From an archaeon (GTDB taxonomy: Archaea; Nanobdellota; Nanobdellia; Pacearchaeales; UBA284): a DNA stretch of 64,000 nucleotides. This document shows positions 11,378-45,105 of this stretch, piece by piece. The position numbers and the translations under genes were made by a program. The stretch lies in assembly GCA_020343435.1 (NCBI GenBank), contig CP070794.1, forward strand, positions 126,413 to 190,412. The letters are read 5' to 3'. The notes under the pieces were generated by a model, which searched no databases, had not been told where the DNA came from, and worked only from the letters and a program-made list of their open reading frames with translations. The stretch's first letter is position 1; the number at the start of each line of letters is the position of its first letter.

Positions 11378-12444
11378 AGACAAGCTCCAGATGCTGGGGG
11401 AATATGATAAGTTTCATTAGCTTCTACAAAAGTCATCTCAAGCCAAGAAGGAACTTTATTTGTTGCATCTACAATTTTAACCTCCGAATCCTCAGAACTA
11501 AAGTAAGAATGATCAACAAGACTTTTACCAGGCATTAAAGTACGCCCAACTTTAACCCCATGTATTATGCTCTCAATACCAGATTCTGTATCTTGAGCAT
11601 CAAACTGGCCTTTTAATCTACTTAGATAATTTGGGGCATTGGGACTATATGCATAAAATGAACTAGTATAATCAGGTTCCTGAGCACCATCTGCCCATGT
11701 TCTTTCTAAATGCATGCTTAAATTAGTTCCATTACAAGTTCCAGTACTATTATTAACAAAAGATGTATATGGTGTTCTTTTGATTAAACTAACAACATCT
11801 CTTCCAAATTCTCTGGTATAGAAAGGATCTTCTAAATTATATAATGGAATTTTTCCTTCTACAACAGCATATCTGTCCCATACAGCATTAAGTTCATCAT
11901 CTTCAATAACATAGTGAAGAGTAACATTCATATCAATTGCCCATGGAGTAGATTGACCTATGCTCACCCCAATATCATCTATATCTAAATCCCGGAATTC
12001 TAAATTAATCCCTTGTTTACTTGCTCTATCTATGATACTCCCCTGCCAATCCGCTAGAGTCATCCCTTCTAGAAATCTGGAGCCATCATAACCTTCAATA
12101 ATAAGTTCTCCATTGATAAAAGCATCTTTAAAAACCACATCATAGTCCACACTCAAAGGGATATAATCCTCTGCTGAAGAAATATAATCTAATAATCCTA
12201 AAACAGTCCTATATCCTGAAATATAAATTGCTCTTTCAGCATCTTTTTCTACAGACTCTACAAAACTATTTGTGGTTAGAACTCTGGTTCTAATTGATTC
12301 TTTAGTATACTCTCTTCTGTAAGAAAAAGAAACTAATAATAATAGAGTTATAAGAAAAAGAACTGTTAAAGTAAAGAAAAATGCTTTTTTATTTTTCATA
12401 AATTTTTTATTTTTCATTTTATCTCCAAGCCATTGTTTTTGCAA
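11365..12444 (-). CDS. Pilin-like protein with class III signal peptide (KKA|FFFTLTVLFLITLLLL), 359 aa
   Basis: The N-terminus resembles the FFTLDALFA motif of the upstream adhesin. It overlaps the 1239-aa gene, so it is the last gene of the pilin operon. Confidence 0.5.
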   Translation of the reverse strand: MQKQWLGDKMKNKKFMKNKKAFFFTLTVLFLITLLLLVSFSYRREYTKESIRTRVLTTNSFVESVEKDAERAIYISGYRTVLGLLDYISSAEDYIPLSVDYDVVFKDAFINGELIIEGYDGSRFLEGMTLADWQGSIIDRASKQGINLEFRDLDIDDIGVSIGQSTPWAIDMNVTLHYVIEDDELNAVWDRYAVVEGKIPLYNLEDPFYTREFGRDVVSLIKRTPYTSFVNNSTGTCNGTNLSMHLERTWADGAQEPDYTSSFYAYSPNAPNYLSRLKGQFDAQDTESGIESIIHGVKVGRTLMPGKSLVDHSYFSSEDSEVKIVDATNKVPSWLEMTFVEANETYHIPPASGACLQFI

Positions 12445-15400: not shown

Positions 15401-16138
15401 AGGGAACAAACGATCATTTACAGATATTTGAAAAGTGTCTCCCATGATCACTCCCTCAAAAGATAAAGAAGTTACATTGATATCCAAAGGTAAATCAAAT
15501 CTTTGAGTTATGTTTCCATCTCCAACATATCCCCCAAAATAAACATATTTTGTTTTCTCTGGTCTATAAAGATAAGCTCTTGAAGAATAACCTTTAACAG
15601 GTTGTTCATAAGCAATCCCACTCATATGTTTTTTAGCAGCAACTACATCTCTTGAATTTGCAAAAGGAATATTGCTTTTAGACCATATTTCAATTAAAAC
15701 AGTTCCAGAAGGGTCTGGAGCTTCAAAATAAAGACCAATATTGTCTTCTTCTGTTGTTATGCTATCAAAAAAACTTTCAGTGATCTCTCCACTAATATTA
15801 TTTGCAGGGGTTTGACCATAATGGGTCGCCCAAATTTTACCAATTGTATCTATTAGATTATCTTTATCTTCCAAAATCTCTATTCGAACAGAATTATTTA
15901 ATTGAGAAATGTTTCCATTTATTAAAGAATTGTTTATACTTACTGTATTGAGATTTGAGAGAAGAGTCAACATATCTTCTTGTAAATAAGAGGTTCTATG
16001 TTTTTCAGGAACATCTCCAACATATGCAAAAGGAACTAAGATAATCACAGATAACAAGATTACCAAAGCAAAAAGAGCATCCAGAGTAAAAAAATACCCC
16101 CTCTTTTGTTTTAGTTTTTTCATTTTAAGCTTTTTCAA
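12419..16138 (-). CDS. Giant pilin-anchored adhesin with class III signal peptide, a vWA domain carrying a complete MIDAS, and FG-GAP-like beta-propeller repeats (integrin-like)
   Basis: N-terminus KRG|YFFTLDALFALVILLSVIIL. vWA: ADVIVVMDVSGSM (DxSxS), ..GGDT.., ..LVLADGLTN... Four repeats of G(N/D)GKW.L..G...G.F..F.WNGTGW (aa about 630-830). Many N-x-S/T sequons. Confidence 0.7.
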   Translation of the reverse strand: MKKLKMKKLKQKRGYFFTLDALFALVILLSVIILVPFAYVGDVPEKHRTSYLQEDMLTLLSNLNTVSINNSLINGNISQLNNSVRIEILEDKDNLIDTIGKIWATHYGQTPANNISGEITESFFDSITTEEDNIGLYFEAPDPSGTVLIEIWSKSNIPFANSRDVVAAKKHMSGIAYEQPVKGYSSRAYLYRPEKTKYVYFGGYVGDGNITQRFDLPLDINVTSLSFEGVIMGDTFQISVNDRLFPETFSPSTCKHCPISLDGGQFPDPIDPYFNGGINEIKFNTTTYNRSLYIAGGFLKIKYTTGSVSYLLPETKYLPFINGSMNIYDSFYIPGNLTNVVINLEYEQEENTTPFVKIGNVTVWRDERGNKKGYNSVQITNSTISSKLLSEQGITYLDISKENVPFRVGIEEIEAQIGGRGPADVIVVMDVSGSMIWRMDKDYKNGDQNIACGNLSDPDNPIFLPGRRRLNVAKCLAIEFLNILLEHSENRVGLVGYSARPGSTPGGATTPNVIQYSTGLTNNNVTLVSDLNGYATGGDTPVCAGLRKARLMLEARPPEEQDRPSFILVLADGLTNVHCNETDIDRVDPGCISERCPDDDFCEGVDCGVGCHDRVAQITSGQSAKVAVTYDLRGNGKWNLVVGDKAGNVYGHEWNGLRWVLTPSVISGLSNLGSNTYPAPELLYEFSGTNKHDLIFGLYNGSFAGFSWDGDSWVSNSTLVGGLTIASRTQADPTVVFNLTGNGKWVLISGMDDGSFASFFWNGTGWERDDSLAPPGDIGTNSAPTTGFNITGTGEWELVTGSSGSDYYGFFWNGTGWTRTDTIAFGLDLSDAPGGQGPSPDLAYNLIENKWYIISGITNSHTQGFYSHYYSSSASSWLMICGDWVNQKSIDQSISEATRGHNTANATIYAVGFGPIAFCPIAQDLMMRIAEEGEGDYFLSNNASELRIIFREWAQEILRLTYANQSVIIVIGSAKSNLSNGTVTFGYDFEDNGWDTDGNSLFGDLISYETDGFSGGMDSFTFATGDPFEASVISYSGDLWSRESFIQNTTHNLTFFNLTKWNETYITLGDPFTINIPVERISKGPTVNEVGLVFGTNSSYNETPPDDSSKIIYTLFIPPTFSYSGAVNKVGEGCIWTIQYQDPSNPDLPGGTFELAVPAGTNPTETCTFSKTLGPPNIKYDEDEAYDVAVFNLLNDILDQNPKNNMSDIQFNTELGINAVLVPGIPFLHFTIAKTMAWR

Positions 16139-16718
16139 AAGACCATAAATAAATAACCATCCTTAAAGGAATGGTAATGTTACTTTCATTCTTATAAGCA
16201 ACTAAACGTTCTATTTTAACAAGTTGTGTTGGATTCTTACCTTGTATTGTATTTCCTGCTCCAGAACAACCCCCAGGATCTGGAATTAATCTTGGAACCG
16301 GGGGGTCACTATAAAAATCCTCCATATTATCAAAAAATTGTATGAAAAAAGATGATTGGGTTCCAAACTTTTCTTTAACACCTGAATAATAGTTTTCGCT
16401 CCAATCACAAAATTTTGTCCATTTCGCTGGATCCAATGTATTATCAGTAATTAATCCAAATTGATAAATATCTTCAAGGTTCTCTGGACTAAGCGTAATT
16501 TCTTCCCATCCTGGAGGGGTCCCATTAATTAATAGAGAATTTGATATATATCTTCCTTCTCTCACCATCCTACTAACAATGTTTTGTTCAGGAACAAAAC
16601 TTACAGAATAACGATAGAAAAGAAAAATAATCATAACAAAAACCATTAGACCAATAGCTAAGTCAAGAGCCCAAACTTGAGCTTTTTTATTTTTTCTTGA
16701 GAGATTTAAGTTTGGCAA
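16125..16718 (-). CDS. Pilin-like protein (class III signal peptide KKA|QVWALDLAIGLMVFVMIIF)
   Basis: 197 aa; basic N-terminus, small residue, then Q and a hydrophobic helix. It overlaps neighbours on both sides. Confidence 0.5.
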   Translation of the reverse strand: MPNLNLSRKNKKAQVWALDLAIGLMVFVMIIFLFYRYSVSFVPEQNIVSRMVREGRYISNSLLINGTPPGWEEITLSPENLEDIYQFGLITDNTLDPAKWTKFCDWSENYYSGVKEKFGTQSSFFIQFFDNMEDFYSDPPVPRLIPDPGGCSGAGNTIQGKNPTQLVKIERLVAYKNESNITIPLRMVIYLWSFEKA

Positions 16719-17140
16719 TCTAATTTTAATTCCTCCTGTTCTCCAGCTTCTCTAATCTTTTCTATAGTAACTGTTCCCCCTGGAATAAGAGGTTCCACAT
16801 CATTAATATAAGGTGTTCCTCTCGACGCTGTGAATTTAGTTTCACTCCCTCTTAAAGTTTTAACTACAAAACCATATCCAGAATCAGACATTAAGATAGA
16901 ATACTCTTTTCCAGTAATTTTTTTAGGTAATGTAAACTCTCTAGAATAATTTGGAGGGGATCCCGAAGCTAAAGTTATTTCTTGTTGTAGAAAATTTGCA
17001 AAATCATTTAAAGATTCTTGTTCATTTTTCTCTCTTGCTAAAGAAGTATTAAAATTAGCTGAAGCAATCATTATTACTACTAAAAAAATAACTGCTGAGA
17101 CTAATAATGTGAATTCAATTGTTACTTGTCCTTTTTTCAT
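16706..17140 (-). CDS. Type IV pilin (archaeal, Q-x-S/T-x-E-F class; KKG|QVTIEFTLLVSAVIFLVV)
   Basis: The QxTxEF motif after KG is characteristic of EppA/PibD-processed archaeal pilins (DUF361-like). 144 aa. Confidence 0.65.
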   Translation of the reverse strand: MKKGQVTIEFTLLVSAVIFLVVIMIASANFNTSLAREKNEQESLNDFANFLQQEITLASGSPPNYSREFTLPKKITGKEYSILMSDSGYGFVVKTLRGSETKFTASRGTPYINDVEPLIPGGTVTIEKIREAGEQEELKLDCQT

Positions 17141-17141
17141 T

Positions 17142-17600
17142 TTATTGATTTGTTTTGGTTACCTCAACATAAATCCCATTAGAATCATTCTTTGCTTCCA
17201 AAGTCAGAGTCTTAAAACCTGCCTTAGATAAACTGGTTTGGACACCCCCTCCATCCTCTATTCTTCCTTGAGTATCATAAATCATATCTGATCTCGCTGT
17301 TCCTTTGATAGTAACTTTAAAATGGATGCCAAAAGGGGAAGTATCTAGAAACTCTACACTATAAACGCTCTCAGGAATAGTTACTTGAATTGTTGCCTTA
17401 GAAGGAGGACCTAAAAAGTAAATTGAATCGGCAGCTTCAGCAATTTTTTTTCCAGCTTTATCAACAGTATTGACTTTTATTTGAGTTTTTGCTGTTCCAG
17501 AATAATAGTAAGCGATACCTATTATGGCTATTAAAAGGAAAGTAATAAAACCAATAAGTAAAGCGAACTCTACACTTACCTGACCTCTTTTTTTTCTCAT
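17142..17600 (-). CDS. Type IV pilin (archaeal; RG|QVSVEFALLIGFITFLLIAII), probable major pilin
   Basis: Canonical class III signal peptide with Q+1, S+3, E+5, F+6. It is the first gene of the operon and 152 aa long. Confidence 0.7.
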   Translation of the reverse strand: MRKKRGQVSVEFALLIGFITFLLIAIIGIAYYYSGTAKTQIKVNTVDKAGKKIAEAADSIYFLGPPSKATIQVTIPESVYSVEFLDTSPFGIHFKVTIKGTARSDMIYDTQGRIEDGGGVQTSLSKAGFKTLTLEAKNDSNGIYVEVTKTNQ

Positions 17601-17682: not shown

Positions 17683-19293
17683 ATGGATTACCAAAAGAAA
17701 CTGAAAAAAAAGTATGGTGAAACATATCTTCGGGAAGTATTCAATGAGAGAGTCACAAAAATTTTAATTTTAGAAACATATAGGGGAACTATTTTTATTG
17801 AACTTTTCCATAAAGATATCCCTTTGATTAAAGATGTTATCTCTAGTGTTCTTTTGGGGGAACTTGATGGGATGGTATTTTACAATTGTAATCCTTACTT
17901 CTTACAATTAAGAAAAAGTGCTGAAGAAAAAAAGATGTCTGATAGGATTCTTAGACCCTACTTACAAAACATAAAGGGAACTGTTGGTTTGGTAAGTTCG
18001 AAAAGAAATGCACAGAAATCTTTACTAGATCATTTTTACATTTGTTTATCTGATGTTCCTGAAATCGATGGAGAATATACTATAATTGGAAAGGTGGTTC
18101 GTGGTTTTGATATTTTAACTAAGGTATGGAATGGTAATACTATAAGAAGAGCATACATAGAAAAAGGATTTGTTGGAAAAGAACCAACAATTAAGAGGTT
18201 GGGAGCACTATACTGGGTTGGTTTAGCAACAATTTTATTTTATGCGTTCTGGTTATTATCAAGAAATCTTGTTTCATTACAAAATTTCCAAAAATCTATT
18301 TTTGGAAGTGTTTTTACAGAAACGCTATCCAAAGGAAACGCGATATTTATTCTGATAGTGGGAATAATTCTGATAATCTTTGCTTTAACAGTAAGTGGAT
18401 TAAGTGCGAGAGTGAAAGTTGGAGAAACACCAACAGCCCTAAAAGAGAGAGACGAAGAGAAAAAGATGTTGATGAAAGTTAGAGAAAAGAGATTAAAGAT
18501 GATGGAGACGTTGAGAAAGAAAGAAAAAAGTAAAACCCCGGTTTTTAAGAAAGAAGTTAGAGAGGAAGATAAAGGAGGAAAAAGACTGGAAAAAGAGAAA
18601 AGAGAGATTGAAGAACTTAGAAAGAAGTTAGAGAGAGAAAAGAAAGAATTTGAGGAGCGTCTTAGAAAACAAAAAGTTCCTTCAAAAGCAGAATTAAGAG
18701 AATTAAGTAAAGGAAAGGAGGAAAAAGAGAGATTAAAGAAGGAGAGATTAAGACTAAGAGAAATAAAAGCTAAAAGAAAAGCTAAGGAAGAAGAGAAAAA
18801 GAGGAGAGAAGAAGAAAAGATTAAGATAAGAGAGGCTAAGATAAGAGAAAAGAAAGCTAGAGAAAAGGCAAGAGAAGACGCTAAGAAAAAAGCAGAGGAA
18901 GAAAGACAGAAGATTAAAGAGGCTAAGATAAGAGAAAAGAAAGAAAGGATTAAGAAGACTGTGAAAGAAAAGAATAAAGAAGAACAGAAAGAGAGGAAAA
19001 AGATGGTACAAGTAATGGAAAAACACATAGATACTAAAAAAGAGATTAAAAAGAAACTAAAAGAAGAAATTAAAAGAGAAGTATTACCAAGAATTGCTCA
19101 AAAAACTGAGACACAATTAGATATTTTATATGATCTTTTAGAAAAATATAAAACACTAAAATTAGATTATATTATGAAAACATTTGAGATTAGTAAAGAA
19201 GAAGCAATAGAGTGGTGTAATATTCTTGTTGAAAATGGTCTTGCTGAATTAAAATATCCTGCATTTGGAGAGCCCCTTTTAATTAAAAAATGA
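17683..19293 (+). CDS. Fusion protein: N-terminal cyclophilin-type PPIase-like domain, 2 TM helices, about 220-aa E/R/K-rich predicted single alpha-helix/coiled-coil region, and a C-terminal winged-helix-like domain
   Basis: TYRGTIFIELFHKDIPL.. and ..GEYTIIGKVVRGFDILTKV resemble cyclophilin motifs (..HvVFGkV.eGmdVv.ki). TM helices at aa about 172-195 and 220-240. Highly charged repeats (EKKAREKAREDAKKKAEEERQKIKEAKIREKK) from nt about 18430 to 19090. C-terminus ..LDILYDLLEKYKTLKLDYIMKTFEISKEEAIEWCNILVENGLAEL. Confidence 0.5.
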   Translation: MDYQKKLKKKYGETYLREVFNERVTKILILETYRGTIFIELFHKDIPLIKDVISSVLLGELDGMVFYNCNPYFLQLRKSAEEKKMSDRILRPYLQNIKGTVGLVSSKRNAQKSLLDHFYICLSDVPEIDGEYTIIGKVVRGFDILTKVWNGNTIRRAYIEKGFVGKEPTIKRLGALYWVGLATILFYAFWLLSRNLVSLQNFQKSIFGSVFTETLSKGNAIFILIVGIILIIFALTVSGLSARVKVGETPTALKERDEEKKMLMKVREKRLKMMETLRKKEKSKTPVFKKEVREEDKGGKRLEKEKREIEELRKKLEREKKEFEERLRKQKVPSKAELRELSKGKEEKERLKKERLRLREIKAKRKAKEEEKKRREEEKIKIREAKIREKKAREKAREDAKKKAEEERQKIKEAKIREKKERIKKTVKEKNKEEQKERKKMVQVMEKHIDTKKEIKKKLKEEIKREVLPRIAQKTETQLDILYDLLEKYKTLKLDYIMKTFEISKEEAIEWCNILVENGLAELKYPAFGEPLLIKK

Positions 19294-21083
19294 AAAAAAG
19301 AAAGATAAAATCAAGGACCAAGAAAAAAAAAGTGAAGAAAAGAAAAAAGTCTTTCCATGCTCTCTCTGTTCCAAAACCAACTTGGAAAAAACCAATAAAA
19401 GAAACACATGATAAACTTGGTTTTCCAAGTAAAACTGTAGAAATAAAAAAAGTGGGTTCTGTAGTGACAACCCCACAGACAGAAAAAGACAAAAAATTGG
19501 GTTTACCAACAAAGACAGATAAAGAAGAGATACAAGAAATAAAAACCAAGATCAAGGAAAGAATTCAAGTTCATGGAAAGATCATAAAAACATATGATAT
19601 TGATTCTAATAATGTTAAGGTAAAGATATCTATATTAGATACAGAAAAAGGACTATTCTACCAAATAAAAATTCCAGAAATATCTCGTCCAACTCGGGCA
19701 CTTTTAGAGAACATAAAACAAAAATTAATAGGCACTATTGAAATGGGGGCTTCTGAGATAACAGATATTAATGCTATAGAAAAACTAAAACAAAAATTAA
19801 TATCTCGTTCAAAAGACTTATTACAAAGATTCAAATCATCTAGGGATAACATAACTCTTTTAACAAGTATTCTAATTAATGAGATGTTGGGGTTAGGCAA
19901 TATAGAACTTTTAGTTGCAGATCCCCATTTAGAAGAAATAGTTATAGCATCTGCACAAGAACCTGTAAGAGTTTATCATAAAGAATTTGGTTGGTTGCCA
20001 ACGAACATTTATTTAGAAAACGAAAAACAAACTGAAAATTACTCTGCTATAATTGCAAGGCGTGTTGGAAGACAAATTACAACCCTAACTCCAATGTTGG
20101 ATGCTCACCTTGTAACTGGTGATCGTGTAAATGCTGTTTTATATCCTATATGTACAAGAGGGAATACAATAACAATTAGGAAATTTGCAAGAGAACCATG
20201 GACCATTGTGGATTTCATTAATAATAAGACTTGCAGTGCAGACGTTTTTGCGATGATATGGATGGCAATACAATATGAAATGAACATTCTATTTTCTGGT
20301 GGAACAGCCTCTGGAAAAACAACTATGTTGAACGTCTGCACTCCTTTCTTCCCAGCAAATCATAGAATTCTAAGTATTGAAGATACTAGAGAGTTGCAGT
20401 TACCAGAACACTTGTATTGGTCTCCATTAACAACAAGGTTACCAAATCCTGAAGGAAAGGGAGCAGTTACAATGTTGGATCTATTGGTTAATAGTTTAAG
20501 AATGAGGCCAGATAGGATAATTCTTGGAGAGGTAAGAAAACACGAAACAGCAGAAGTACTTTTTGAGGCAATGCATACTGGTCATAGTGTTTATTCTACA
20601 GTTCACGCAAATACATCTTCAGAAACAGTTGCTAGATTAGTAAATCCCCCAATTAGCATTCCTCCAAACTTGTTGAAAGCAGTAGACCTTAATGTTGTAA
20701 TGTTTAGAGAGAGGAGAAGAGGAATAAGAAGAGTCTTTCAATTAACAGAACTAATTCCAGATGAAACTGATAAAAACGGAGTAAAGCCAAATATCCTTTA
20801 TAGATGGGAACCAAGTTCAGATAAGATTATATCTCATGCTTCAACTTTAAGATTCTTTGAAGATATGTCAAGACATACTGGAATGAGTTTTTCTCAGATT
20901 AATAAAGATCTAAAAGAAAAAAAAGAATTTATAGAACATCTTGTGAAAAACAACATCAGAGAGATGAATAGTATAGGAAAAATGATTCAGGATTTCTATC
21001 TTAAAAAAGGAATAAAAGATATAAAAACCAAAAAACCTTCTAAAATTAAGAAAATTAAAAAGAAAAAGAGAAAAAAGAGGTAA
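19290..21083 (+). CDS. Type IV pilus / archaellum-type assembly ATPase (FlaI/ArlI-PilB-GspE-VirB11 superfamily)
   Basis: Walker A FSGGTASGKTTMLN, Asp/Glu boxes (..ILSIEDTRELQL..), His box (..ILGEVRKHE..) and a Lys-rich N-terminal extension. Its start overlaps the upstream gene. Confidence 0.85.
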   Translation: MKKRKIKSRTKKKKVKKRKKSFHALSVPKPTWKKPIKETHDKLGFPSKTVEIKKVGSVVTTPQTEKDKKLGLPTKTDKEEIQEIKTKIKERIQVHGKIIKTYDIDSNNVKVKISILDTEKGLFYQIKIPEISRPTRALLENIKQKLIGTIEMGASEITDINAIEKLKQKLISRSKDLLQRFKSSRDNITLLTSILINEMLGLGNIELLVADPHLEEIVIASAQEPVRVYHKEFGWLPTNIYLENEKQTENYSAIIARRVGRQITTLTPMLDAHLVTGDRVNAVLYPICTRGNTITIRKFAREPWTIVDFINNKTCSADVFAMIWMAIQYEMNILFSGGTASGKTTMLNVCTPFFPANHRILSIEDTRELQLPEHLYWSPLTTRLPNPEGKGAVTMLDLLVNSLRMRPDRIILGEVRKHETAEVLFEAMHTGHSVYSTVHANTSSETVARLVNPPISIPPNLLKAVDLNVVMFRERRRGIRRVFQLTELIPDETDKNGVKPNILYRWEPSSDKIISHASTLRFFEDMSRHTGMSFSQINKDLKEKKEFIEHLVKNNIREMNSIGKMIQDFYLKKGIKDIKTKKPSKIKKIKKKKRKKR

Positions 21084-21085
21084 AA

Positions 21086-21967
21086 ATGAAGTTAAGAATT
21101 CCATTTTCTTTTTATCCGCCAAAATTTTTGTATAGGTTCTCAAATGCTTTTCTATCAGTTGGTAAAAAGATGGTTTCTAAAAATAAGAATATGGAGCTAT
21201 ACTTCTCACAATCAGATTTCCCAATAAAACCTGAAAGATATATTGCTGCTTCTATTGCATCAACAATTCTTAATTTAATTATTTTCAGTTTAATCTTTAT
21301 AATAATTTTCAGAGCAGGAGGATCAAATCCTCTTTTTGGATTGCTTATCGGCATAGTAGTTGCAGGGTTCATGTATATGCAGCAATTAAATTATCCTAAG
21401 ATGATAATTTCTAAACGTATAAGAAACATTAATGTTAATATTCTTCCAGCAATCAGAGCTTTAATGATTCAATTAAATGCTGGAATTACATTCTTTAATG
21501 CTTTAAAAAATATAGCAAAAGGAAATTATGGAGTAATTTCAGAAGAATTCCAAAAAGCAATAAACTCTATGGAAGCTGGAGTTCCTGCAGTTGAAGCTCT
21601 TGAAAAAATTTCTAGAAACAATCCTTCGCTCTTCTTCAGAAGAGCTATTTGGCAGATAATAACTGGAATCCAAGTTGGAGCAGATATTTCAATAGTTCTT
21701 AAGGAAATTGTTCATTCATTAGTACAAGAACAAATGACAGAGATACAAGCATATGGAGGGAGGTTGTCTCCATTAGCTATGTTTTATATGGTTATCTCAA
21801 TTATATTCCCAGCATTAGGGATAACATTTTTGATGATATTATCTACATTTATACAAGGTCTTGGACAAAATTACCAGTTGATACTTTTCGGAATATTAGC
21901 ATTAGTTATTTTATTCCAGTTTATATTTTTGGGAATGATAAAATCAAGGAGGCCGCCACTGATATAA
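21086..21967 (+). CDS. Pilus assembly polytopic membrane protein, TadB/TadC (T2SS-F/FlaJ-like) half 1
   Basis: 293 aa with multiple TM segments and a cytoplasmic helical domain (..ALMIQLNAGITFFNALKNIAKG..) typical of the GspF/TadC repeat. It lies directly downstream of the ATPase. Confidence 0.65.
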   Translation: MKLRIPFSFYPPKFLYRFSNAFLSVGKKMVSKNKNMELYFSQSDFPIKPERYIAASIASTILNLIIFSLIFIIIFRAGGSNPLFGLLIGIVVAGFMYMQQLNYPKMIISKRIRNINVNILPAIRALMIQLNAGITFFNALKNIAKGNYGVISEEFQKAINSMEAGVPAVEALEKISRNNPSLFFRRAIWQIITGIQVGADISIVLKEIVHSLVQEQMTEIQAYGGRLSPLAMFYMVISIIFPALGITFLMILSTFIQGLGQNYQLILFGILALVILFQFIFLGMIKSRRPPLI

Positions 21968-21968
21968 A

Positions 21969-22934
21969 ATGAGATTATTTGCAAGATTTTCACCAAAGTT
22001 CACAGAAAAGATAGAAAAGCTAGTAGAATATGCTAATGTTAAAAAGAATCCTAGAGAACTTGCAGGGATGATTATTTTCATAAGTCTAGTAATTGCTGTA
22101 GTTGCGTTTGTAGCATTATTCTTGTTTGTTGGGTGGATATACTCCATTCCAGTAGCAGTTGTAATTTATTTTGTGGTTCCATTAATCTTCCAGTTAATGC
22201 TTGTTCTAAAAGCAGATAAAAGAGCTTCCCAAGCAGAAGAAGCACTACCAGATGCTTTGCAATTAATGGCAACAAACTTGAGAGCAGGATTAACAACAGA
22301 TAAAGCACTTTTAGTTTCAGCAAGAGAAGAGTTTGGGGTACTTAATGAAGAATTTAAGCGGGTTGCAAAAGAGATTGCTGTGGGAAAAGAGATAACAGAG
22401 TCATTAAAAAGAATGTCAGAAAGAATACATTCAGATCTTGTAGAAAGAACTTTAAGTCTAATAATTTTTGGAATAATTTCTGGAGGAGAATTAGCATCAT
22501 TACTCGAAGAATCTGCTGCAAGCCTAAGACAACAAAGTCTAACAAGAAAACAAATTCATGCAAGTGTCTTAATGTATACTATTTTCATAATTGTTGCAGT
22601 GGCAGCTATTTCTCCTCTACTCTTTGGATTAAGTTCTGTTCTTACAGAAACTATGCAAGAAACTATTGGATCTATAGAAGCTCCGCCTCCAGAAGTTACT
22701 TCTCAGGTTCCATTATCCATCTCGCCAGTAGACATAGATGTTGGTTTGATAAGGATATTTATAATAATACTATTAGTAGTAAGTGCTATCCTAAGTTCTC
22801 TGGTTTTAGGACTAATATCTAAAGGTAATGAAAAAGCGGGATTAAAATATATACCAATATTAATGATAATCTCTTTAGTGGTGTTCTTTGTAGTAAGAAC
22901 TGGAATTGTAAAACTTCTGGAGATGTTTTTCTAG
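21969..22934 (+). CDS. Pilus assembly polytopic membrane protein, TadC/FlaJ-like half 2
   Basis: 321 aa; a second GspF-like repeat (..LQLMATNLRAGLTTDKALLVSAREEFGVLNEEFKRVAKEIAVGKEITESLKRMSER..). Together with the previous gene it equals a split FlaJ. Confidence 0.65.
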   Translation: MRLFARFSPKFTEKIEKLVEYANVKKNPRELAGMIIFISLVIAVVAFVALFLFVGWIYSIPVAVVIYFVVPLIFQLMLVLKADKRASQAEEALPDALQLMATNLRAGLTTDKALLVSAREEFGVLNEEFKRVAKEIAVGKEITESLKRMSERIHSDLVERTLSLIIFGIISGGELASLLEESAASLRQQSLTRKQIHASVLMYTIFIIVAVAAISPLLFGLSSVLTETMQETIGSIEAPPPEVTSQVPLSISPVDIDVGLIRIFIIILLVVSAILSSLVLGLISKGNEKAGLKYIPILMIISLVVFFVVRTGIVKLLEMFF

Positions 22935-22973: not shown

Positions 22974-23732
22974 ATGGTAAAAAAGAAAAAAGGGGTAAAG
23001 AAGAAAGTTAAGAAGATAATTAAAAAAAATGAAAAGATAGAAACAGGGATCCCGGCTTTTGATAAGATTAGTAAGGGGGGATTTAATGAAGAATCTGTTA
23101 ATTTAATTGTTGGTGGAGCTGGAGCTGGTAAAACTATTTTTTCTATAAAATTCTTAATGGAAGGAATGATCAAAGGAGAAACTTGTCTGTACATTACTTT
23201 TGAGGAAAAGAAAGATGAATTATATAAGAACATGCTGTCTTTTGGATGGGATTTAGCAGATTATGAAAAAAAAGGTAAGTTTATCTTTGTGGAATATACT
23301 CCTGAGAAAGTTAGAAAAATGCTTCAAGAAGGTGGGGGGGCTTTAGAAAGTCTTATGTACAGTAAAAAAATAAGTAGGCTTGTGATAGATAGTGTAACTT
23401 CCTTTACCCTACTTTTTGAAGGGGAATTGGCAAAAAGAGAGGCAGCTCTTTCATTATTTGATATGACTAGAAGATGGAAAACAACTGTATTACTAACGTC
23501 AGAAAGAGAATTAACAAAAAAAGATTTAACATCTGGGACAAGTTCAGCTCTAGAATTCGAAGCAGATTCTATAATATTACTTTATTTCTTAAGAGAGGGC
23601 GGGGAAAGAAAGAGGTTGATAGAAGTCCTTAAAATGAGAGGAACCCAACACTCTAAAAGCCTTTATCCTTTTCAAATAACTAGTAAGGGTGTTGAGATAA
23701 GTAGTAAAGCTAAGAAAATAAATCTAAAATAA
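22974..23732 (+). CDS. KaiC/RecA-superfamily ATPase, FlaH(ArlH)-like
   Basis: GIPAFDKISKGGFNEESVNLIVGGAGAGKT (Walker A) and ..LYITFEE.. match the KaiC-like domain. The 252-aa single domain and position next to the pilus ATPase and membrane genes mirror FlaH. Confidence 0.7.
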   Translation: MVKKKKGVKKKVKKIIKKNEKIETGIPAFDKISKGGFNEESVNLIVGGAGAGKTIFSIKFLMEGMIKGETCLYITFEEKKDELYKNMLSFGWDLADYEKKGKFIFVEYTPEKVRKMLQEGGGALESLMYSKKISRLVIDSVTSFTLLFEGELAKREAALSLFDMTRRWKTTVLLTSERELTKKDLTSGTSSALEFEADSIILLYFLREGGERKRLIEVLKMRGTQHSKSLYPFQITSKGVEISSKAKKINLK

Positions 23733-24137
23733 TCAAACATCAACCACACATTCTACAATCCAACTCTTTTTTTTGTAAATTTTTAACCCAGAATAAGTTG
23801 CTGCCTTAACTTCTGTTCTTAATTGATGTTCTTTTTTTATTTTTTCTCCAAAAGCAAAACCTTGTAATTTGTTTTTATCTAATCTAGTTATCTTAAATTT
23901 TGAGAACAACATATTTTTCAAAGAGGATTGGCTTAGTAAGGCATTTAACCATTCAATAAAGAGTTCTTCCTTATTTTCTGCTTTACAAGAAATCTTAATT
24001 TTTTTGGAAGCTTTAATTTTTTTTATGTTTGCTTGAACAGAAAACATAGCTTTCGCAGCTTCTGTAAAAGCTTCTTTTACAGTTTTTCCCTTACCTCTAA
24101 TTCCAATGTCTGCTTTATGTTCAAAAGTTTCATGCAT
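23733..24137 (-). CDS. Archease (RtcB tRNA-ligase cofactor)
   Basis: Begins MHETFEHKADIGIRGKGKTVKEAFTEAAKAMF.., the archease signature (FxHTADxGxxxxGxxxEE.F..AA). Size 134 aa. Confidence 0.8.
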   Translation of the reverse strand: MHETFEHKADIGIRGKGKTVKEAFTEAAKAMFSVQANIKKIKASKKIKISCKAENKEELFIEWLNALLSQSSLKNMLFSKFKITRLDKNKLQGFAFGEKIKKEHQLRTEVKAATYSGLKIYKKKSWIVECVVDV

Positions 24138-24138
24138 T

Positions 24139-24507
24139 TTAATCTCTTAACCAAACATATGCTATAAATTTTTGGGTGTTTCCACTTTCCCAAACAAAAA
24201 AAGTTGAAGAACCAATTTCTTTTTCTAAGTTGGGAGGACTACATTTAGGATCACATTTTCTTATAGAGACGTCAAACCTTGTATGATTTATTTTTTCTTT
24301 TAATTTGGAATTTAAATCTTCAACATTTGTTAATAAAGATCCTCTCTCAGTAGTTGTCGCTTCTTCAACAACATAATCTAAAACAGAACTTGTATCTATA
24401 GATGTACTCCCTGGTTGTCTTGACATAGATATGAATAAAAAACTAAACATGATTAGAACTGCTATAACAACTTCTATAACTAAAAGCCAACCTTTTTTAT
24501 TCACCAT
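24139..24507 (-). CDS. Pilin-like small protein (KKG|WLLVIEVVIAVLIMF), 122 aa
   Basis: The N-terminus closely resembles the bacterial/archaeal type IV pilin G|FTLIEVVIA consensus. It overlaps the upstream gene and is downstream of the DUF87 ATPase. Confidence 0.45.
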   Translation of the reverse strand: MVNKKGWLLVIEVVIAVLIMFSFLFISMSRQPGSTSIDTSSVLDYVVEEATTTERGSLLTNVEDLNSKLKEKINHTRFDVSIRKCDPKCSPPNLEKEIGSSTFFVWESGNTQKFIAYVWLRD

Positions 24508-25190
24508 ATTCTCATATTCACCAATGCTTCCTGAACATTGGCATTTTCATCTATTATTTTAATTTTGAATTCTTTAGCATAAACTCTAACATCAAATGGC
24601 TCAAATTCTGTAATATTAAACAAAATTTCTTCTCCTTGTTTGATTATAATTGAAAAATCTCTATCAAAACCAAGTTGTTTTCTGAATTCTCTGTAATCTT
24701 TGGAATAATTCTCCCTAAACTCTTCTAATTTATCATAAAAAACAAATTCTTCTTCTTTGATAAAGGAATAGCTGTAATCTTCAGTTGGATCACATGTTGG
24801 TCCTGAAGAAACACTCTCAAAGTATTCTGAAAAGAATAAACTATATTTACCAGAACCATGGCTCCCTACATGAATATTATTGCTTGAATCAAAATTAAAA
24901 TCAATAACAGAACCCCCTTCTTTGATAATCAAATTATCCGGAGAACCCTGAAAATTAGTATTAAAAGGAACATTAAAACAAGTTTTAGTAGTGGTAATTG
25001 TAAGATTAGCTATTTTAACTGGAATCTCTGTTCTTTCTCTAAATTCTTTTTCTAGAAGAAGAAAAGAATTACCTTCATTAGATCTTAAAGAAAAATGTGA
25101 GATATATAAAACAGCCAAAACACATATAATAAATATACTTACAGCAATTACATATTCTACATGATGAACACCTTTTTTATTTTTCATCAT
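24501..25190 (-). CDS. Pilin-like protein (NKKG|VHHVEYVIAVSIFIICVLAV), 229 aa
   Basis: Class-III-like N-terminus, then a beta-rich extracellular domain. It overlaps the DUF87 ATPase gene (25187). Confidence 0.45.
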   Translation of the reverse strand: MMKNKKGVHHVEYVIAVSIFIICVLAVLYISHFSLRSNEGNSFLLLEKEFRERTEIPVKIANLTITTTKTCFNVPFNTNFQGSPDNLIIKEGGSVIDFNFDSSNNIHVGSHGSGKYSLFFSEYFESVSSGPTCDPTEDYSYSFIKEEEFVFYDKLEEFRENYSKDYREFRKQLGFDRDFSIIIKQGEEILFNITEFEPFDVRVYAKEFKIKIIDENANVQEALVNMRIW

Positions 25191-26515
25191 AATCTTTTTT
25201 TGATTTTTATAGCAGTAGGAGCTTCACCACCATGCCATGTAAATCTTGGCCTAACTCTCATAGGATAAATTCTTTCAGAATTATCATCTAAAATTATTGC
25301 TGATCCTTTAAGTCTTGGTAAATTATCAATATATGTTTTAATATCTGCAGCCAGATAGCTCTGCATAATGTAATTCAAAGCATCAACATCTGGTTTAGCT
25401 GTAACTCTGTGAGATATGACTACATCAGATTGAGTCATAACATCTTTATGAATCTGTCCTGGTTGTTGGGTTGCTAAGACCAAGGAAATACCTGGTTGTC
25501 TTCCTTCTCTTAAAATTTGAATTAAAGCGTCTGTTGCAGCTGTTTTTCCTTCAACTGGTAAGAATTCGTGAGCTTCATCTATAGCCATCCAAACTAATGG
25601 CATCTCTCTTTTCTCTTTATAATGTAAGTAATCTAAACCATGTCTTACTCCTTCAACTTCCTCATGTTTTCTTGCTTCCATTCTTTGATTAAATATTTTT
25701 TTAGAAACTAATCCTATTACTAAAGCCCTAACATTGAAAGATCCAATACTGCTATAACAACTTAAATCTAAAATTGTTGTACTCCCTGCCTTAACTAACT
25801 CTTCAACTTTGGTCCCTTCTTCTTTTTTTGGTGCAAAAACTCCCCAAGTATCTGCTCCTTCAAATAAGTTTATAGCAGCATCTTTTTCATGTTTAGCAGC
25901 ACGAGTATCTTTTTGTATAGCTTTAACAATATCTTTTATATCAAAATCTCTAATTCTATTGTTTTCTAGTTCATCTAACAATAATTGAACATTTCTTTCA
26001 ACAACAAGTGCAACAGGATCTATGAATTCCAATCCAAAAGTAATAATCCAATCATCTATACTAATATCAGAGACTTTTAATGCAAATGGTTTGGTTGCAA
26101 CAATTCCTTTTTCTTTGTATTTTTTAAAATAACCAAAAGGGACATAAACTTTAACAGGCAATTTTTTAGAGTCTATCCCCCATTGTTTTAACAATGCAGC
26201 TTCTTTTTCATTTTTATGAGACATTGTCCAGAAGATTCCCATAGTATCAAAAATTAAGAAAGATAAATTTTGTGAGATTTCTTTATCTAAATCTGCTAAT
26301 TCTTCTGCAATAACCCCAATTGAATAAGATTTTCCTGAACCTCTTTTACCAGCTATTAGGATTACATGACTTCTGGCAATATCCACAAGAACCCGATTAC
26401 TTAAACTAGTAACATGCCCCATTTTAACATAATGTTTTCCTAAATAGATCAAAGCTTCTTTACCAAATCTCTTTTTATCTGCCTCATCTCTACCAATAAC
26501 AATATCTTCTGGCAT
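25187..26515 (-). CDS. DUF87 / HerA-FtsK-VirB4-like P-loop ATPase
   Basis: Walker A ILIAGKRGSGKSYSIG, Walker B WMAIDEAHEFL and a ..LVLATQQPGQI.. motif (the TQRP-like motif of HerA/FtsK/TraG families). 442 aa. First gene of a three-gene operon with two pilin-like proteins. Confidence 0.7.
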   Translation of the reverse strand: MPEDIVIGRDEADKKRFGKEALIYLGKHYVKMGHVTSLSNRVLVDIARSHVILIAGKRGSGKSYSIGVIAEELADLDKEISQNLSFLIFDTMGIFWTMSHKNEKEAALLKQWGIDSKKLPVKVYVPFGYFKKYKEKGIVATKPFALKVSDISIDDWIITFGLEFIDPVALVVERNVQLLLDELENNRIRDFDIKDIVKAIQKDTRAAKHEKDAAINLFEGADTWGVFAPKKEEGTKVEELVKAGSTTILDLSCYSSIGSFNVRALVIGLVSKKIFNQRMEARKHEEVEGVRHGLDYLHYKEKREMPLVWMAIDEAHEFLPVEGKTAATDALIQILREGRQPGISLVLATQQPGQIHKDVMTQSDVVISHRVTAKPDVDALNYIMQSYLAADIKTYIDNLPRLKGSAIILDDNSERIYPMRVRPRFTWHGGEAPTAIKIKKRL

Positions 26516-26606
26516 TTCATACCTCTTTTTACCTCTATAAAAAACACAACTAACTTATAAATCTTGCGAACAAAAGATTTATAAGCCAGGAGTTCCTGAA
26601 GTAAAA

Positions 26607-28082
26607 ATGGCTGAGGAGACTGAGAAAAAAGAAGTAAAAACTACTAAAAAAGTTAAGAGAAAGAGAATTAATTGGACAAAGTTAGGGATAGTTATTGTAA
26701 TTGTAGCTTTTATCTTAATATTCTTATGGCCAGGAGGAATTCTTTTATCTGAGCCAGGACAAGCTACAAGATATGTTAACACATCTTATGATGTTTTTGT
26801 TGGAGATCAAATAATAGATACAGGTTCTGGAAATATAAGAGAGGGGACATTATCTGGATCCATAGGATTTATTTCTGATAAATTAGATCAAGAAATAACA
26901 AATATGCAACCTGGTGAAGATAAGAATATTACCTTAACAGCAACAGAAGCTTTTGGAACTTGTGATTCCTCTAATAATTTTGAATATGATAGAAAACAAG
27001 AAATAGAAAGAGAGCAAGATATAAACAGAACAAGAAATGTAACATTAGCTATCTTTACACAAATGTTTGAAGAAGAACCAGAAGTTGGAGAAGTTTATGA
27101 AACTCCCTTAGCAGAATGGAAGTACAAGGTCTTAGAAATTTTTGATAATGAATTAACTCTAAGCATTGAAACTGAACTTGGAAAGGAGTTTCCAGCAGGT
27201 TATTATGGGGTCCTAAAAGTTAAAACAATAACTGATGATAAGATTACTCTAAGATTGGAAGGGGAAGATTCTATAGTTCCTAGTGAAGTAGGGAATATTG
27301 AAATTGAATTTAAAGAAGACGTTGTTGTTAGCACATTAACTCCAGAAATTGGAGCAGAAATTCAATTACCTAACTTACCTAAAGCAAGAGTAATAGAATT
27401 AACTGAAGACACTATAAAATTAACAACAAATCATCAGTACTGTGATCAGGAAGTTATAGTTTCAATTAAAGTTTTAGGAAGATCAACTCAGACCACCTCT
27501 ACAGGAGGACCCATACAACATATTGAAGGAGCTCCAACATTAGAATTCTATATCATGAGCTACTGTCCTTATGGATTACAAATGTTAAAGGGAGTGTTGC
27601 CAGTTTGGAAACAATTCCAAAGTCATGCAAATATAGAATTAAGATTTGTTAATTATATTTTACACGGTCAAGAAGAACAAGATGAAAATGCAAGAATGAC
27701 TTGTATAAGAGAAGAACAATCTGATAAATTAATAGATTACTTAACTTGTTTTGTTGAGAATGGAGATTATGAGAGATGCATGGTGCAAACAGGAGTTGAT
27801 TCAGCTGAAGTAGAATCTTGTATAGATGAAAGATATGATACTTACTTTGTAGAAGATAATGCTAGAAATGAACAATATGGAGTAAAGGGATCTCCAACAG
27901 TGGTATTAAATGGTGAAGTAATTGAATTATGGCCAAGAAGCCCATCAAATGTAGCTAAAGCAATATGTGATGCTTTTGATTCAAAACCAGATGTTTGTGA
28001 TTTAACATTTAGTGAAGAAAATCCAACAGCAGGGTTTGGGGGGAGTACTGGAGGATCTGGTGGTTCTGGTGGAAGCTGTTAA
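26607..28082 (+). CDS. Membrane-anchored extracytoplasmic thioredoxin-fold (DsbA-like) thiol:disulfide oxidoreductase with a Gly-rich C-terminal tail
   Basis: N-terminal TM anchor (WTKLGIVIVIVAFILIFLW). CxxC active site ..FYIMSYCPYGLQML.. followed by a DsbA-like helical insert (..LIDYLTCFVENGDYERC..). C-terminus GFGGSTGGSGGSGGSC. Confidence 0.55.
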   Translation: MAEETEKKEVKTTKKVKRKRINWTKLGIVIVIVAFILIFLWPGGILLSEPGQATRYVNTSYDVFVGDQIIDTGSGNIREGTLSGSIGFISDKLDQEITNMQPGEDKNITLTATEAFGTCDSSNNFEYDRKQEIEREQDINRTRNVTLAIFTQMFEEEPEVGEVYETPLAEWKYKVLEIFDNELTLSIETELGKEFPAGYYGVLKVKTITDDKITLRLEGEDSIVPSEVGNIEIEFKEDVVVSTLTPEIGAEIQLPNLPKARVIELTEDTIKLTTNHQYCDQEVIVSIKVLGRSTQTTSTGGPIQHIEGAPTLEFYIMSYCPYGLQMLKGVLPVWKQFQSHANIELRFVNYILHGQEEQDENARMTCIREEQSDKLIDYLTCFVENGDYERCMVQTGVDSAEVESCIDERYDTYFVEDNARNEQYGVKGSPTVVLNGEVIELWPRSPSNVAKAICDAFDSKPDVCDLTFSEENPTAGFGGSTGGSGGSGGSC

Positions 28083-31056: not shown

Positions 31057-33219
31057 ATGTCTAGAGAGGATCAAATAATAAAAGAGCGTTTAAGAAAAAT
31101 AGAAGAGTTAAGAAAACAAGGGATTAATCCTTATCCTTACAAATTTGATAAGAAAAACTACTGTGAAGAGCTACAAAAAAAGCACTCTAAACTAAAAAAA
31201 GAACAAGAAGCTAAAGGAACGGTAAAAATAGCTGGAAGAATCTTGGTTATAAGGAATATGGGAAAAATTTGTTTCGGTAAATTACAAGATAATACTGGAC
31301 AAATACAAGTTGTCTTACAAAATCAAAAAACTCCTGAAAAAGAAATTAAATTTTTCAAAAAATACATTGACTCTGGAGATATTTTAGGAGTAGAAGGTTC
31401 TATATTTAAGACAAAGAGAGGAGAATTATCTGTTTTAGCTAAAAAAATAACCCTCTTAACTAAATCTATAAAACCTTTACCTGAAAAATGGCATGGATTA
31501 CAAGATAAGGAAGAAAGATACAGAAAAAGGTATCTAGATTTAATTATGAATCCCAAAGTTAAGGAATTATTCTTAAATAGACAAAAGATTGTTAATGCTA
31601 TTAGAGAATTTATGGAGATTAAGGGATTTACAGAAGTAGAAACACCAATTTTACAATCAATTTATGGTGGGGCATCAGCAAATCCCTTTGAATCTAATCT
31701 AAATGCTTTAAATATGAAAGTCTACATGAGAATTTCTAATGAACTTTACTTGAAAAGATTAATAGTTGGCGGATTTGAAAAAATATTTGAATTTTCAAGA
31801 GACTTCAGAAACGAAGGTATTGATAGATTACATAATCCTGAATTCACACAAGTTGAAACCATGTGGGCTTATGCGGATTATGAAGATAACATGAAATTCT
31901 GTGAAGAAATGGTTAGTTTCATAACTAAAAAAATTCATGGAAAAACAAAGATAAAATTCCAAGATAAGGAAATTGATTTTAAAACACCATGGAAAAGAAT
32001 AAAATTCTTAGATGTTATTAAAAAACACACAAAAGCAGATTTCTCTAAAGTAAAAAAAGTAGATGAAGCTAAGAAGATAGCTAATAAATTAAACGTAGAC
32101 ATAACTAATTGTGAAAGTGTTGGTGAAATAATAATAAATGTTTTTGAAGAACTAGTGCAAGATAAAATAATACAACCAACAATTGTTTATGATTATCCTT
32201 ATGAAGCAGTAGGATTAGCAAAATCTGGAGAAAATAAGAAATTTGTAAAATCTTTTGAACCAATTGTCAATGGTTGGGAACTTGGATTATCTTACTGTGA
32301 ACAGAATGATCCTCAAGCATTAAAGGAATACTGGAAAGAGGCTGAAGAAAAATACAAAAGAGGAGATATCGAAGCACAACCAACAGATCCTGATTTCATC
32401 AATGCCTTAGAAATAGGAATGCCCCCAACATCTGGCATGGGAATGGGAATAGATAGATTAACTATGTTAATGACAGATCAAACTTCAATAAGAGATGTTT
32501 TATTTTTCCCATTTATGCGACCAGAAAAACCATTAAAAGTTCCTTCTCAAAAAGAAAAAAGAACAGATATGAAAAGAATAAAAGAAGTTTTTATTTCTCC
32601 TGAAGCTAGAAAAATTGGATTAAAAACAGGATATGCTATCATTTCTGGAGTTAAGATATATAAAAAAAATCCTGGACTTGAAAAATTAAAAAAATCATTA
32701 AAAGCTAAAAGAGATAAGAAAAAAATTGAATGCATGCAAAAAGCTTTCAGAGCTTTTGGAGTAGATCCTACTAAAAGAGCTCCAAGTGCAGAAGCTCTAA
32801 TCAAAAGAGTAGAATCTGGAAAAGACATCTATAACATCAATACGTTAGTTGATGCTTATAATTTATCTTCTGTAAAAGAAAATTTACCAATGGCAGCATA
32901 TGATTTAGAAAAAGTTGATTTCCCAATAACCTTAAAAGAAGCAAAAGGAGAGGAGATAACCTTCATTGGTGGAGAAAAAAAGAAAACTCAACCAGGAGAA
33001 ATAGTTTACGCAGATGAATTCGAAATATTATGTTTAGATTTTAATTATAGAGATTGTAATAAAACAAAGATAACTGAAAAAACAAAAGAAGTTATCATCT
33101 TTGTTGATGGTTGTGAAGGAATAAGCAATAAAGAAATTTTATCTGCATTGAATAATACTTGTGACTTAATAATCAAGTTCAATGGTGGAAAAGTTATGGA
33201 AAAAAAGGTTGTAGAATAA
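31057..33219 (+). CDS. lysS: Class II lysyl-tRNA synthetase fused to a C-terminal B3/B4 (PheT-like) tRNA-binding domain
   Basis: N-terminal OB-fold (..IAGRILVIRNMGKICFGKLQDNTGQIQVV..). Class II motifs (..FEFSRDFRNEG.., ..GMPPTSGMGMGIDRLTMLMTD..). Residues about 540-720 (..KAFRAFGVDPTKRAPSAEALIKRV..INTLVDAYNLSSVKENLPMAAYDLEKV..) resemble the B3/4 domain. Confidence 0.85.
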   Translation: MSREDQIIKERLRKIEELRKQGINPYPYKFDKKNYCEELQKKHSKLKKEQEAKGTVKIAGRILVIRNMGKICFGKLQDNTGQIQVVLQNQKTPEKEIKFFKKYIDSGDILGVEGSIFKTKRGELSVLAKKITLLTKSIKPLPEKWHGLQDKEERYRKRYLDLIMNPKVKELFLNRQKIVNAIREFMEIKGFTEVETPILQSIYGGASANPFESNLNALNMKVYMRISNELYLKRLIVGGFEKIFEFSRDFRNEGIDRLHNPEFTQVETMWAYADYEDNMKFCEEMVSFITKKIHGKTKIKFQDKEIDFKTPWKRIKFLDVIKKHTKADFSKVKKVDEAKKIANKLNVDITNCESVGEIIINVFEELVQDKIIQPTIVYDYPYEAVGLAKSGENKKFVKSFEPIVNGWELGLSYCEQNDPQALKEYWKEAEEKYKRGDIEAQPTDPDFINALEIGMPPTSGMGMGIDRLTMLMTDQTSIRDVLFFPFMRPEKPLKVPSQKEKRTDMKRIKEVFISPEARKIGLKTGYAIISGVKIYKKNPGLEKLKKSLKAKRDKKKIECMQKAFRAFGVDPTKRAPSAEALIKRVESGKDIYNINTLVDAYNLSSVKENLPMAAYDLEKVDFPITLKEAKGEEITFIGGEKKKTQPGEIVYADEFEILCLDFNYRDCNKTKITEKTKEVIIFVDGCEGISNKEILSALNNTCDLIIKFNGGKVMEKKVVE

Positions 33220-45053: not shown

Positions 45054-45105
45054 ATATGTTTCTATAATTGAAAAAGTTTATTAATACTATAGATCTAAAA
45101 ATAAG

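Follow-up and report, generated by a model that had tools for sequence, protein, structure and literature searches.

Among described systems, those closest to the locus considered here are the HerA proteins (Sulfolobus HerA, 4D2I; the HerA-NurA pairs of Thermococcus and Deinococcus; the anti-phage Sir2-HerA and DUF4297-HerA), the crenarchaeal Ced/Ted systems (CedA, CedA1/A2, CedB, CedD), in which HerA/FtsK-superfamily ATPases are accompanied by small membrane filament proteins (PMC11823120, PMC9905601), and the Epd-type pili of Methanococcus, which comprise one ATPase, two TadC/FlaJ proteins, a major pilin, several minor pilins and large adhesins (PMC4858521). The locus itself is a trio of overlapping genes for an ATPase and two small pilin-like proteins, here termed p229 and p122, within a 64,000-nucleotide stretch of archaeal DNA (contig CP070794.1, positions 126,413 to 190,412; hereafter the window). 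A preliminary description, made from the sequence alone, had read the three genes as one translocation module resembling Ced/Ted and separate from a canonical pilus locus 7 kb upstream. We consider it reasonably probable that the trio is instead a lineage-specific join of two units, namely the gene of a DNA-handling HerA-like ATPase and the tail of a pilus operon.

The first of these units would be a soluble HerA-clade ATPase without the HAS barrel, present in conserved form throughout Pacearchaeota/Woesearchaeota-type DPANN archaea and expressed from a promoter of its own. It would most likely work as a hexameric ring that spends ATP on translocating along DNA or remodelling it in genome maintenance (replication, repair or segregation). 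The second would consist of p229 and p122. The A24 prepilin peptidase (54248-55114) is predicted to cut both after a K/R-G/A motif, and the neighbouring FlaI-FlaJ-FlaJ(-KaiC) machine would then insert them as minor pilins or pilus-base subunits. In the window's clade, the p229-p122-archease block would have been excised from its position behind the second T2SSF gene and attached to the ATPase gene at the latter's 3' end, and the join would have left overlapping, translationally coupled frames without shared function.

The window has a G+C content of ~31%, and in a protein similarity search its proteins find their best matches in Pacearchaeota-type DPANN archaea. Four of its genes stand in a row on the minus strand:

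25187-26515, minus strand: ATPase, 442 aa, a soluble HerA-clade P-loop protein without the N-terminal HAS barrel (Pfam DUF87, 2.5e-10)
24501-25190, minus strand: p229, 229 aa, type IV pilin-like, a predicted minor pilin or pilus-base subunit (class III signal KKG|VHHVEY, Glu at +5)
24139-24507, minus strand: p122, 122 aa, a second pilin-like protein and the constant partner of p229 (KKG|WLLVIE)
23733-24137, minus strand: archease, syntenic and functionally unrelated (Pfam Archease, 2.3e-36)

The three open reading frames, the ATPase motifs and the overlaps given in the preliminary description are all borne out: the ATPase stop and the p229 start share 4 nt (ATGA), p229 and p122 share 7 nt, and the archease gene begins 1 nt past p122.

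Genomic contexts of the ATPase and of the pilin-like pair

Orthologues of the ATPase occur in at least 501 species in a scan of one genome per species, the best 80 being 59-83% identical, and 80 further loci came from a metagenome scan that was seeded with a different clade. We sorted 162 loci by hidden Markov models (HMMs) of p229 and p122 and by marker proteins, and 143 of them could be classified. The sampling was deliberately centred on the clades termed B and C below, and their true share among species is lower than these counts:

116 loci: common block of RFC-small, RFC-large, SSB, a divergent thioredoxin-like gene, the ATPase, a convergent Trm5-like gene, FEN1 and PolB
9 loci: clade B, with the window arrangement ATPase-p229-p122-archease
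13 loci: clade C, FlaI-FlaJ-FlaJ-p229-p122-ATPase
5 loci: other contexts
19 loci: flanks too short to classify

The adjacency of the ATPase and the pair, on which the view of the trio as one module had been built, is missing from 116 of the 143 classifiable loci. The ATPase is a separate gene, probably an independent housekeeping one, whose usual neighbours are replication genes. It is also the slowest-evolving gene of its neighbourhood; between locus L047 and the window, the ATPase is 64% identical and FlaI 32%. Among the neighbours in 84 clustered loci NurA is absent, and RFC, thioredoxin, Trm5, FEN1 and PolB are found instead. The thioredoxin/DsbA-like gene is divergently upstream of the ATPase in 43 of these 84 loci, and in the window it is as follows:

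26607-28082, plus strand: thioredoxin/DsbA-like protein, membrane-anchored by a single transmembrane segment (residues 28-46), the divergent neighbour of the ATPase (sub-threshold Pfam matches to Thioredoxin_4 and DSBA)

Between these two divergent genes, at 26550-26589, lies a hairpin with a 16-bp stem followed by a T-run.

In each of the three contexts TATA-like boxes were seen immediately 5' of the ATPase, by eye and with no statistical test. In the common context and in the ~45-nt gaps between p122 and the ATPase of clade C they lie 25-32 nt 5' of the ATPase start, and in clade B a TTTATAAG box is present together with a Shine-Dalgarno-like AAAGAGGT. A sigma-70 promoter scan returned fewer matches than did shuffled sequences, the sigma-70 model not being applicable to archaea. 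Taken at the level of sequence, the boxes suggest that the ATPase has a promoter of its own.

The pilin-like pair has a different usual home. The gene order (T2SSE)-T2SSF-T2SSF-p229-p122, on one strand, was found in nine of nine loci reached through distant p229 homologues, and with clade C added the pair directly follows T2SSE-T2SSF-T2SSF in all ten lineages sampled outside the window's clade. The available flanks of the nine p229-sampled loci contain no DUF87 gene. Because all nine show the pair behind the T2SSF genes, the pair is to be seen as the conserved tail of an ordinary FlaI/FlaJ-type pilus operon and not as a separate module. The window encodes the rest of such a system:

19290-21083, plus strand: FlaI/PilB-type secretion ATPase (T2SSE) of the pilus system (Pfam T2SSE, 1.4e-36)
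21086-21967 and 21969-22934, plus strand: two FlaJ/TadC-type platform proteins (Pfam T2SSF, 1.2e-16 and 2.2e-16)
22974-23732, plus strand: KaiC/ArlH-like ATPase (Pfam KaiC, 1.5e-56)
11365-17600, minus strand: pilin and adhesin genes of the same pilus system, with class III-like N-termini (Pfam and N-terminal sequences)
54248-55114, plus strand: prepilin peptidase (Peptidase_A24) of the PibD/FlaK type (Pfam Peptidase_A24, 4.1e-15)

It follows that the pair cannot be called distinct from the canonical pilus locus, nor does that locus lie 7 kb upstream. The FlaI-FlaJ-FlaJ-KaiC genes run convergently to 23732 and end 0.4 kb (one gene) from p122, and only the pilin genes at 16125-17600 are ~7 kb off. 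KaiC genes are known to accompany type IV pilus loci in archaea (PMC4858521). The 536-aa product of 17683-19293 has a cyclophilin domain at its N-terminus, and its gene runs 4 nt into that of FlaI, which gives this gene the look of a pilus operon member.

In the p229-sampled loci archease and RtcB usually come next after the pair, and the string p229-p122-archease(-RtcB) recurs in loci L001, L005, L007-L009 and L087-L089. Archease and RtcB are RNA-ligase genes and plainly unrelated to pili; their adjacency to the pair is equally conserved, and genes in these genomes can thus remain stable neighbours without being functionally linked. In locus L090 (1920-4802) the RtcB gene 3' of the pair is split by an intein (960 aa; Pfam order RtcB-Intein_splicing-RtcB).

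Sequence, fold and relatives of the ATPase

The assignment of the ATPase to the HerA/FtsK superfamily of P-loop proteins stands, on its motifs as well as on the Pfam DUF87 match. Walker A (GKRGSGKS, residues 56-63), Walker B (WMAIDE, 309-314), REGRQPG (336-342) and ATQQPG (348-353) are all invariant in an 18-sequence alignment with a mean column identity of 77%. No transmembrane or hydrophobic segment was found in the protein, which points to a soluble enzyme. Against PDB profiles the top matches are HerA (1e-11 to 3e-7). Among NCBIfam models, those of HerA rank first with 35-50 bits against cutoffs of 800-970, the ATPase falling under both equivalog cutoffs (HerA_Thermprot, 36.2 bits, cutoff 800; helicase_HerA, 35.3 bits, cutoff 970), and CedD is fourth with 32.2 bits against a cutoff of 600. 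PADLOC gives HerA first (4e-21) and mad8 second (4e-18, over nearly the full length).

The AlphaFold2 model of the ATPase is poor, with a predicted local distance difference test score (pLDDT) of 60 from the 18-sequence, low-diversity alignment, and its fold matches are indicative only; a helical insertion between Walker A and Walker B belongs to the high-confidence part. With this model the top Foldseek matches are Sulfolobus HerA (4d2i_A, 1.3e-7) and the Thermococcus/Deinococcus HerA-NurA entries 9x1m_A (6.5e-7) and 7f6d_A (1.2e-6), at template-modelling scores of ~0.4, while TrwB and Cag-beta rank below HerA.

The protein shares with HerA the RecA-like FtsK/HerA core, Walker A, Walker B, the EGRxxG arginine motif and the (S/T)Q(Q/R)P motif. 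It differs in length (442 aa against 500-700 aa), in the position of Walker A (residue 56 against ~150 or later), in having no HAS barrel and no NurA or effector partner, and in scores far under the family cutoffs. Only ~45 residues precede the P-loop strand, and alignments with HerA begin at ATPase residue 26-45 and HerA residue 122-146. The barrel is judged missing because the NurA-linked haloarchaeal HerA proteins (547-555 aa) align solely to ATPase residues 45-437, and so start only at residue 45. By its sequence, the ATPase is best placed in a new short subfamily of the HerA clade, outside HerA proper, CedB/CedD, VirB4 and TraG. It would represent a very conserved, uncharacterised short HerA-like protein of at least 501 DPANN species, sometimes with a P-loop intein: in two orthologues (L125:6001-7716 and L127:3864-5594) a ~143-aa mini-intein sits inside Walker A (GKRG|C...SHN|SGKS). 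Inteins favour essential nucleic-acid enzymes.

Other families were considered and set aside. A match to Zot, the filamentous-phage assembly ATPase, is confined to the Walker B region (residues 310-369); phage packaging ATPases gave just 4 weak matches among 50,697 phage records; and the conjugative VirB4/TraG models reach 17-19 NCBIfam bits, TrwB and Cag-beta falling below HerA in the fold search as noted. Plasmid matches are mostly to generic 'ATP-binding proteins', and three of the five best are NurA-linked or DUF87 haloarchaeal genes.

The genome-maintenance reading also has a specific version, in which the ATPase would be the functional HerA of these reduced genomes, taking part in end resection with Mre11-Rad50 and possibly with an unrecognised nuclease, its HAS barrel having been lost. 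Its nearest characterised relatives are indeed NurA-associated and other HerA proteins, the window holds Mre11 and Rad50 (8143-11377) with no canonical HerA or NurA beside them, and in locus L002 the orthologue has an Mre11-like phosphoesterase gene 6 kb away. The missing barrel, the NCBIfam HerA scores of 35-36 bits, the failure to find a NurA domain in the window open reading frames scanned, and the lack of any examined locus in which the gene adjoins Mre11-Rad50 nevertheless make so particular a role in repair unlikely. The Mre11-like phosphoesterase and Rad50 genes at 8143-11377 form an overlapping pair with neither HerA nor NurA next to it, and this arrangement departs from the usual archaeal herA-mre11-rad50-nurA cluster.

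The short relatives on mobile DNA raise the matter of defence. MADS mad8 and a Haloplanus plasmid ATPase are likewise short, HerA-like, without a HAS barrel and alignable to the ATPase over nearly the full length. The latter is a short DUF87 protein and the closest non-DPANN homologue, at 33% identity over 88% of the query. On this plasmid (Haloplanus sp. HW8-1, NZ_CP098519.1; L091:5814-8122) the gene of the 389-aa homologue lies behind that of a BREX-type ATPase and shares an overlap with a 380-aa, weakly PglZ-like gene, which suggests a defence role for the Haloplanus branch of the family. That the DPANN ATPase itself is part of an anti-virus system, after the manner of HerA-effector complexes or mad8, would accord with these neighbours and with the PADLOC matches, and we nonetheless regard it as very improbable. 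Defence genes typically have patchy distributions. The mad8 and Haloplanus ATPases sit in defence-type islands on mobile DNA, whereas the DPANN protein is a stable chromosomal gene with 59-83% identity among its best 80 orthologues, a presence in at least 501 species, and no adjacent effector gene in any locus.

Adjacency of the ATPase to the pilus operon tail

Several observations weigh against the two-unit reading. The action of the ATPase on DNA is one that we infer, no NurA-type partner was found among the window open reading frames scanned or in the 84 loci, and the modelled fold is, as said, poor. The common context holds the unrelated Trm5 and thioredoxin genes beside those of replication, and its evidence is no stronger than that of the pilus context. 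Above all, the ATPase adjoins the pair in clades B and C in opposite order (ATPase-p229-p122 in one, p229-p122-ATPase in the other). In a neighbour-joining analysis clade B is recovered in 84 of 100 bootstraps and clade C in 100 of 100 (L047:4938-11311; also L095, L101, L109, L111, L113, L114 and L159), and in 0 of 100 replicates do the two group without many common-context lineages between them; the ATPase therefore became a neighbour of the pair twice, once upstream and once downstream. The clade C copies of p229 escape tblastn with the window p229 and are recovered by an HMM. Finally, the ATGA overlap, present in the window and in L005, implies co-expression of the ATPase and p229.

Against this stands the fluidity of the ATPase flanks, which hold 44 distinct neighbour families upstream (135 scorable loci) and 90 downstream (140 scorable loci). 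Because the flanks change so often, chance can explain the double adjacency; a crude estimate from roughly 130 neighbour changes and about 700 genes in each genome puts the probability that such a juxtaposition arises by chance a second time at ~0.2-0.3. We take the double adjacency as a lead that could hint at a functional link, and do not count it as evidence that the two are coupled. DPANN genomes are compact and prone to rearrangement, and in them overlapping frames need not mean shared function. The interpretation proposed earlier holds in part: the superfamily of the ATPase and the pilin-like nature of the two small proteins are supported, and the ATPase and the pair are neighbours in two separate clades and unlinked in most loci.

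The same adjacency is the foundation of a modified form of the earlier idea, in which the ATPase serves the DPANN type IV pilus as a genuine accessory motor, working with p229 and p122 at the cytoplasmic face of the FlaJ platform and, for example, pulling in pilus-captured DNA or exporting a substrate. Its genes adjoin those of the pair in 9 loci of clade B and at least 13 of clade C, where the ATPase is the last gene of the FlaI-FlaJ-FlaJ-p229-p122-ATPase row; in L127 it follows FlaI almost directly; and start and stop codons overlap in the window. CedB and CedD, of the same superfamily, power archaeal DNA import (PMC11823120), and the DNA transporter of pilus-dependent archaeal transformation is unknown (PMC10133366). 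Yet 116 of 143 classifiable loci show no linkage and the nine p229-sampled loci no ATPase, a TATA-like promoter of its own appears by eye to be kept even in clade C, the flanks run to ~130 neighbour families with the chance estimate just given, the protein has neither a membrane anchor nor an accompanying channel protein, its sequence changes far less rapidly than those of the pilus components, and HerA-type ATPases are not among the known accessories of type IV pili (PMC4858521). On these grounds we think a pilus motor unlikely.

The most specific form of this proposal, for which we would claim only a small probability, is that the ATPase is the missing cytoplasmic DNA motor of type IV pilus-based DNA uptake in nucleotide-scavenging DPANN archaea, docking at FlaJ with p229 and p122. 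A DNA-uptake motor would explain both the double adjacency to the pilus operon tail and the replication-gene context found otherwise. If true, this would make the ATPase a candidate for the DNA transporter, so far unknown, that serves pilus-dependent archaeal DNA uptake (PMC10133366), and the finding would bear on how DPANN symbionts acquire nucleic acids.

The likeness to Ced/Ted is limited to the pairing of a HerA-superfamily ATPase with small membrane proteins, and the analogy drawn in the preliminary description fails on several counts. The CedA1/TedC pilins resemble VirB2 and have no class III signal peptide (PMC11823120), whereas p229 and p122 are type IV pilin-like, with a class III motif and a long helix followed by a beta domain. 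Ced/Ted require the polytopic CedA, and the CedB/CedD ATPases are mostly membrane-bound (PMC11823120, PMC9905601). No CedA-like polytopic protein is present in the operon, the nearby polytopic proteins being of the T2SSF/FlaJ family only; the ATPase here is soluble, a property that some Ced ATPase orthologues share in having no transmembrane segment (PMC11823120). The CedD match of 32 bits is far from its cutoff of 600, and besides CedD no Ced-named NCBIfam model matched the ATPase at E<=0.01. The Ced/Ted systems are, furthermore, crenarchaeal, and the present trio belongs to DPANN.

The pilin-like proteins and further genes of the window

That p229 and p122 have the N-termini of type IV pilins of the class III type is accepted here from their sequences, and the feature is conserved across homologues. 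Both show a short basic N-terminus, a [KR]-[GA] motif and ~20 hydrophobic residues. The N-terminus of p229 reads MMKNKKG|VHHVEYVIAVSIFIICVLAVLYI, with a hydrophobic window at residues 13-31, and that of p122 reads MVNKKG|WLLVIEVVIAVLIMFSFLFI, with one N-terminal hydrophobic helix at residues 8-26. In an alignment of 41 p229 sequences, K5, E12 (+5 after G/A), C71 and C133 are present in at least 90% and the C-terminal W229 is invariant; the pattern [KR]-[GA]-[WF]-x-x-[IV]-x-E is common to the 13 p122 homologues examined, and p122 lies directly 3' of p229 in all 13 loci whose sequence extends far enough. The AlphaFold2 model of p229 (pLDDT 93) shows a 47-residue N-terminal helix (8-54) from the predicted cleavage site, and then a beta-rich domain. 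The two conserved cysteines of p229 might need an oxidoreductase such as the thioredoxin/DsbA-like protein encoded next to the ATPase.

An exhaustive HMMER scan placed 531 homologue clusters in the p229 family at E<=1e-3, nearly all of them full length (220-250 aa). This full scan was needed, as a word-indexed homology search with p229 returned itself alone; the protein has no conserved stretch of 7-10 residues, and its loci were gathered by profile search and contig look-ups. No match to p229 was found in Pfam, NCBIfam or PADLOC, neither Pfam nor NCBIfam has a model for the p229 and p122 families, and no relative of theirs with a solved structure was found. The two genes form a conserved pilin-like module, without an existing family model, that ends the type IV pilus operons of Pacearchaeota/Woesearchaeota.

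The gene set of the window resembles that of the Epd-type pili, with one T2SSE, two T2SSF, several class III-signal proteins including large adhesin-like ones, and a dedicated A24 peptidase (PMC4858521). It departs from them in having a KaiC-like gene as well and in the p229/p122 families without a Pfam or NCBIfam model, and the Glu at +5/+6 is more like that of bacterial pilins. The region 11365-17600 encodes two ~150-aa pilins (KKG|QVTIEF and KRG|QVSVEF) with the same N-terminal design as p229 and p122, pilin-like proteins of 197 and 359 aa, and a 1239-aa VWA protein with a VWA_2 match. The Pfam Class_IIIsignal match at 16706-17140 (E 3.5e-4) has 20.9 bits and is under the 23.7-bit cutoff. 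Class III proteins inside type IV pilus loci are treated as minor pilins in the archaeal census (PMC4858521), and by that logic p229 and p122 are probable minor pilins or pilus-base subunits; the A24 peptidase is predicted to be able to process them along with the pilins, and their cleavage and assembly would follow the course outlined above. The preliminary description had weighed two other outcomes, a NurA-associated HerA with its nurA elsewhere and a pair of ordinary membrane proteins without PibD processing. Neither was encountered: the window open reading frames and the neighbours in 84 loci yielded no NurA partner, and the small proteins resemble PibD substrates.

Some further genes of the window may be recorded. 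At 31057-33219, a 720-aa class II aminoacyl-tRNA synthetase of the Asp/Asn/Lys type, with an anticodon OB fold, carries at its C-terminus a fused B3/4 domain such as occurs in PheRS beta subunits. Four large predicted secreted proteins (712-926 aa) with no Pfam match are encoded at 34734-40431 and 42708-47454, and the neighbouring 275-aa protein (39604-40431) has a class III-like signal at its N-terminus (MYKRGQTTLFIIIAV).

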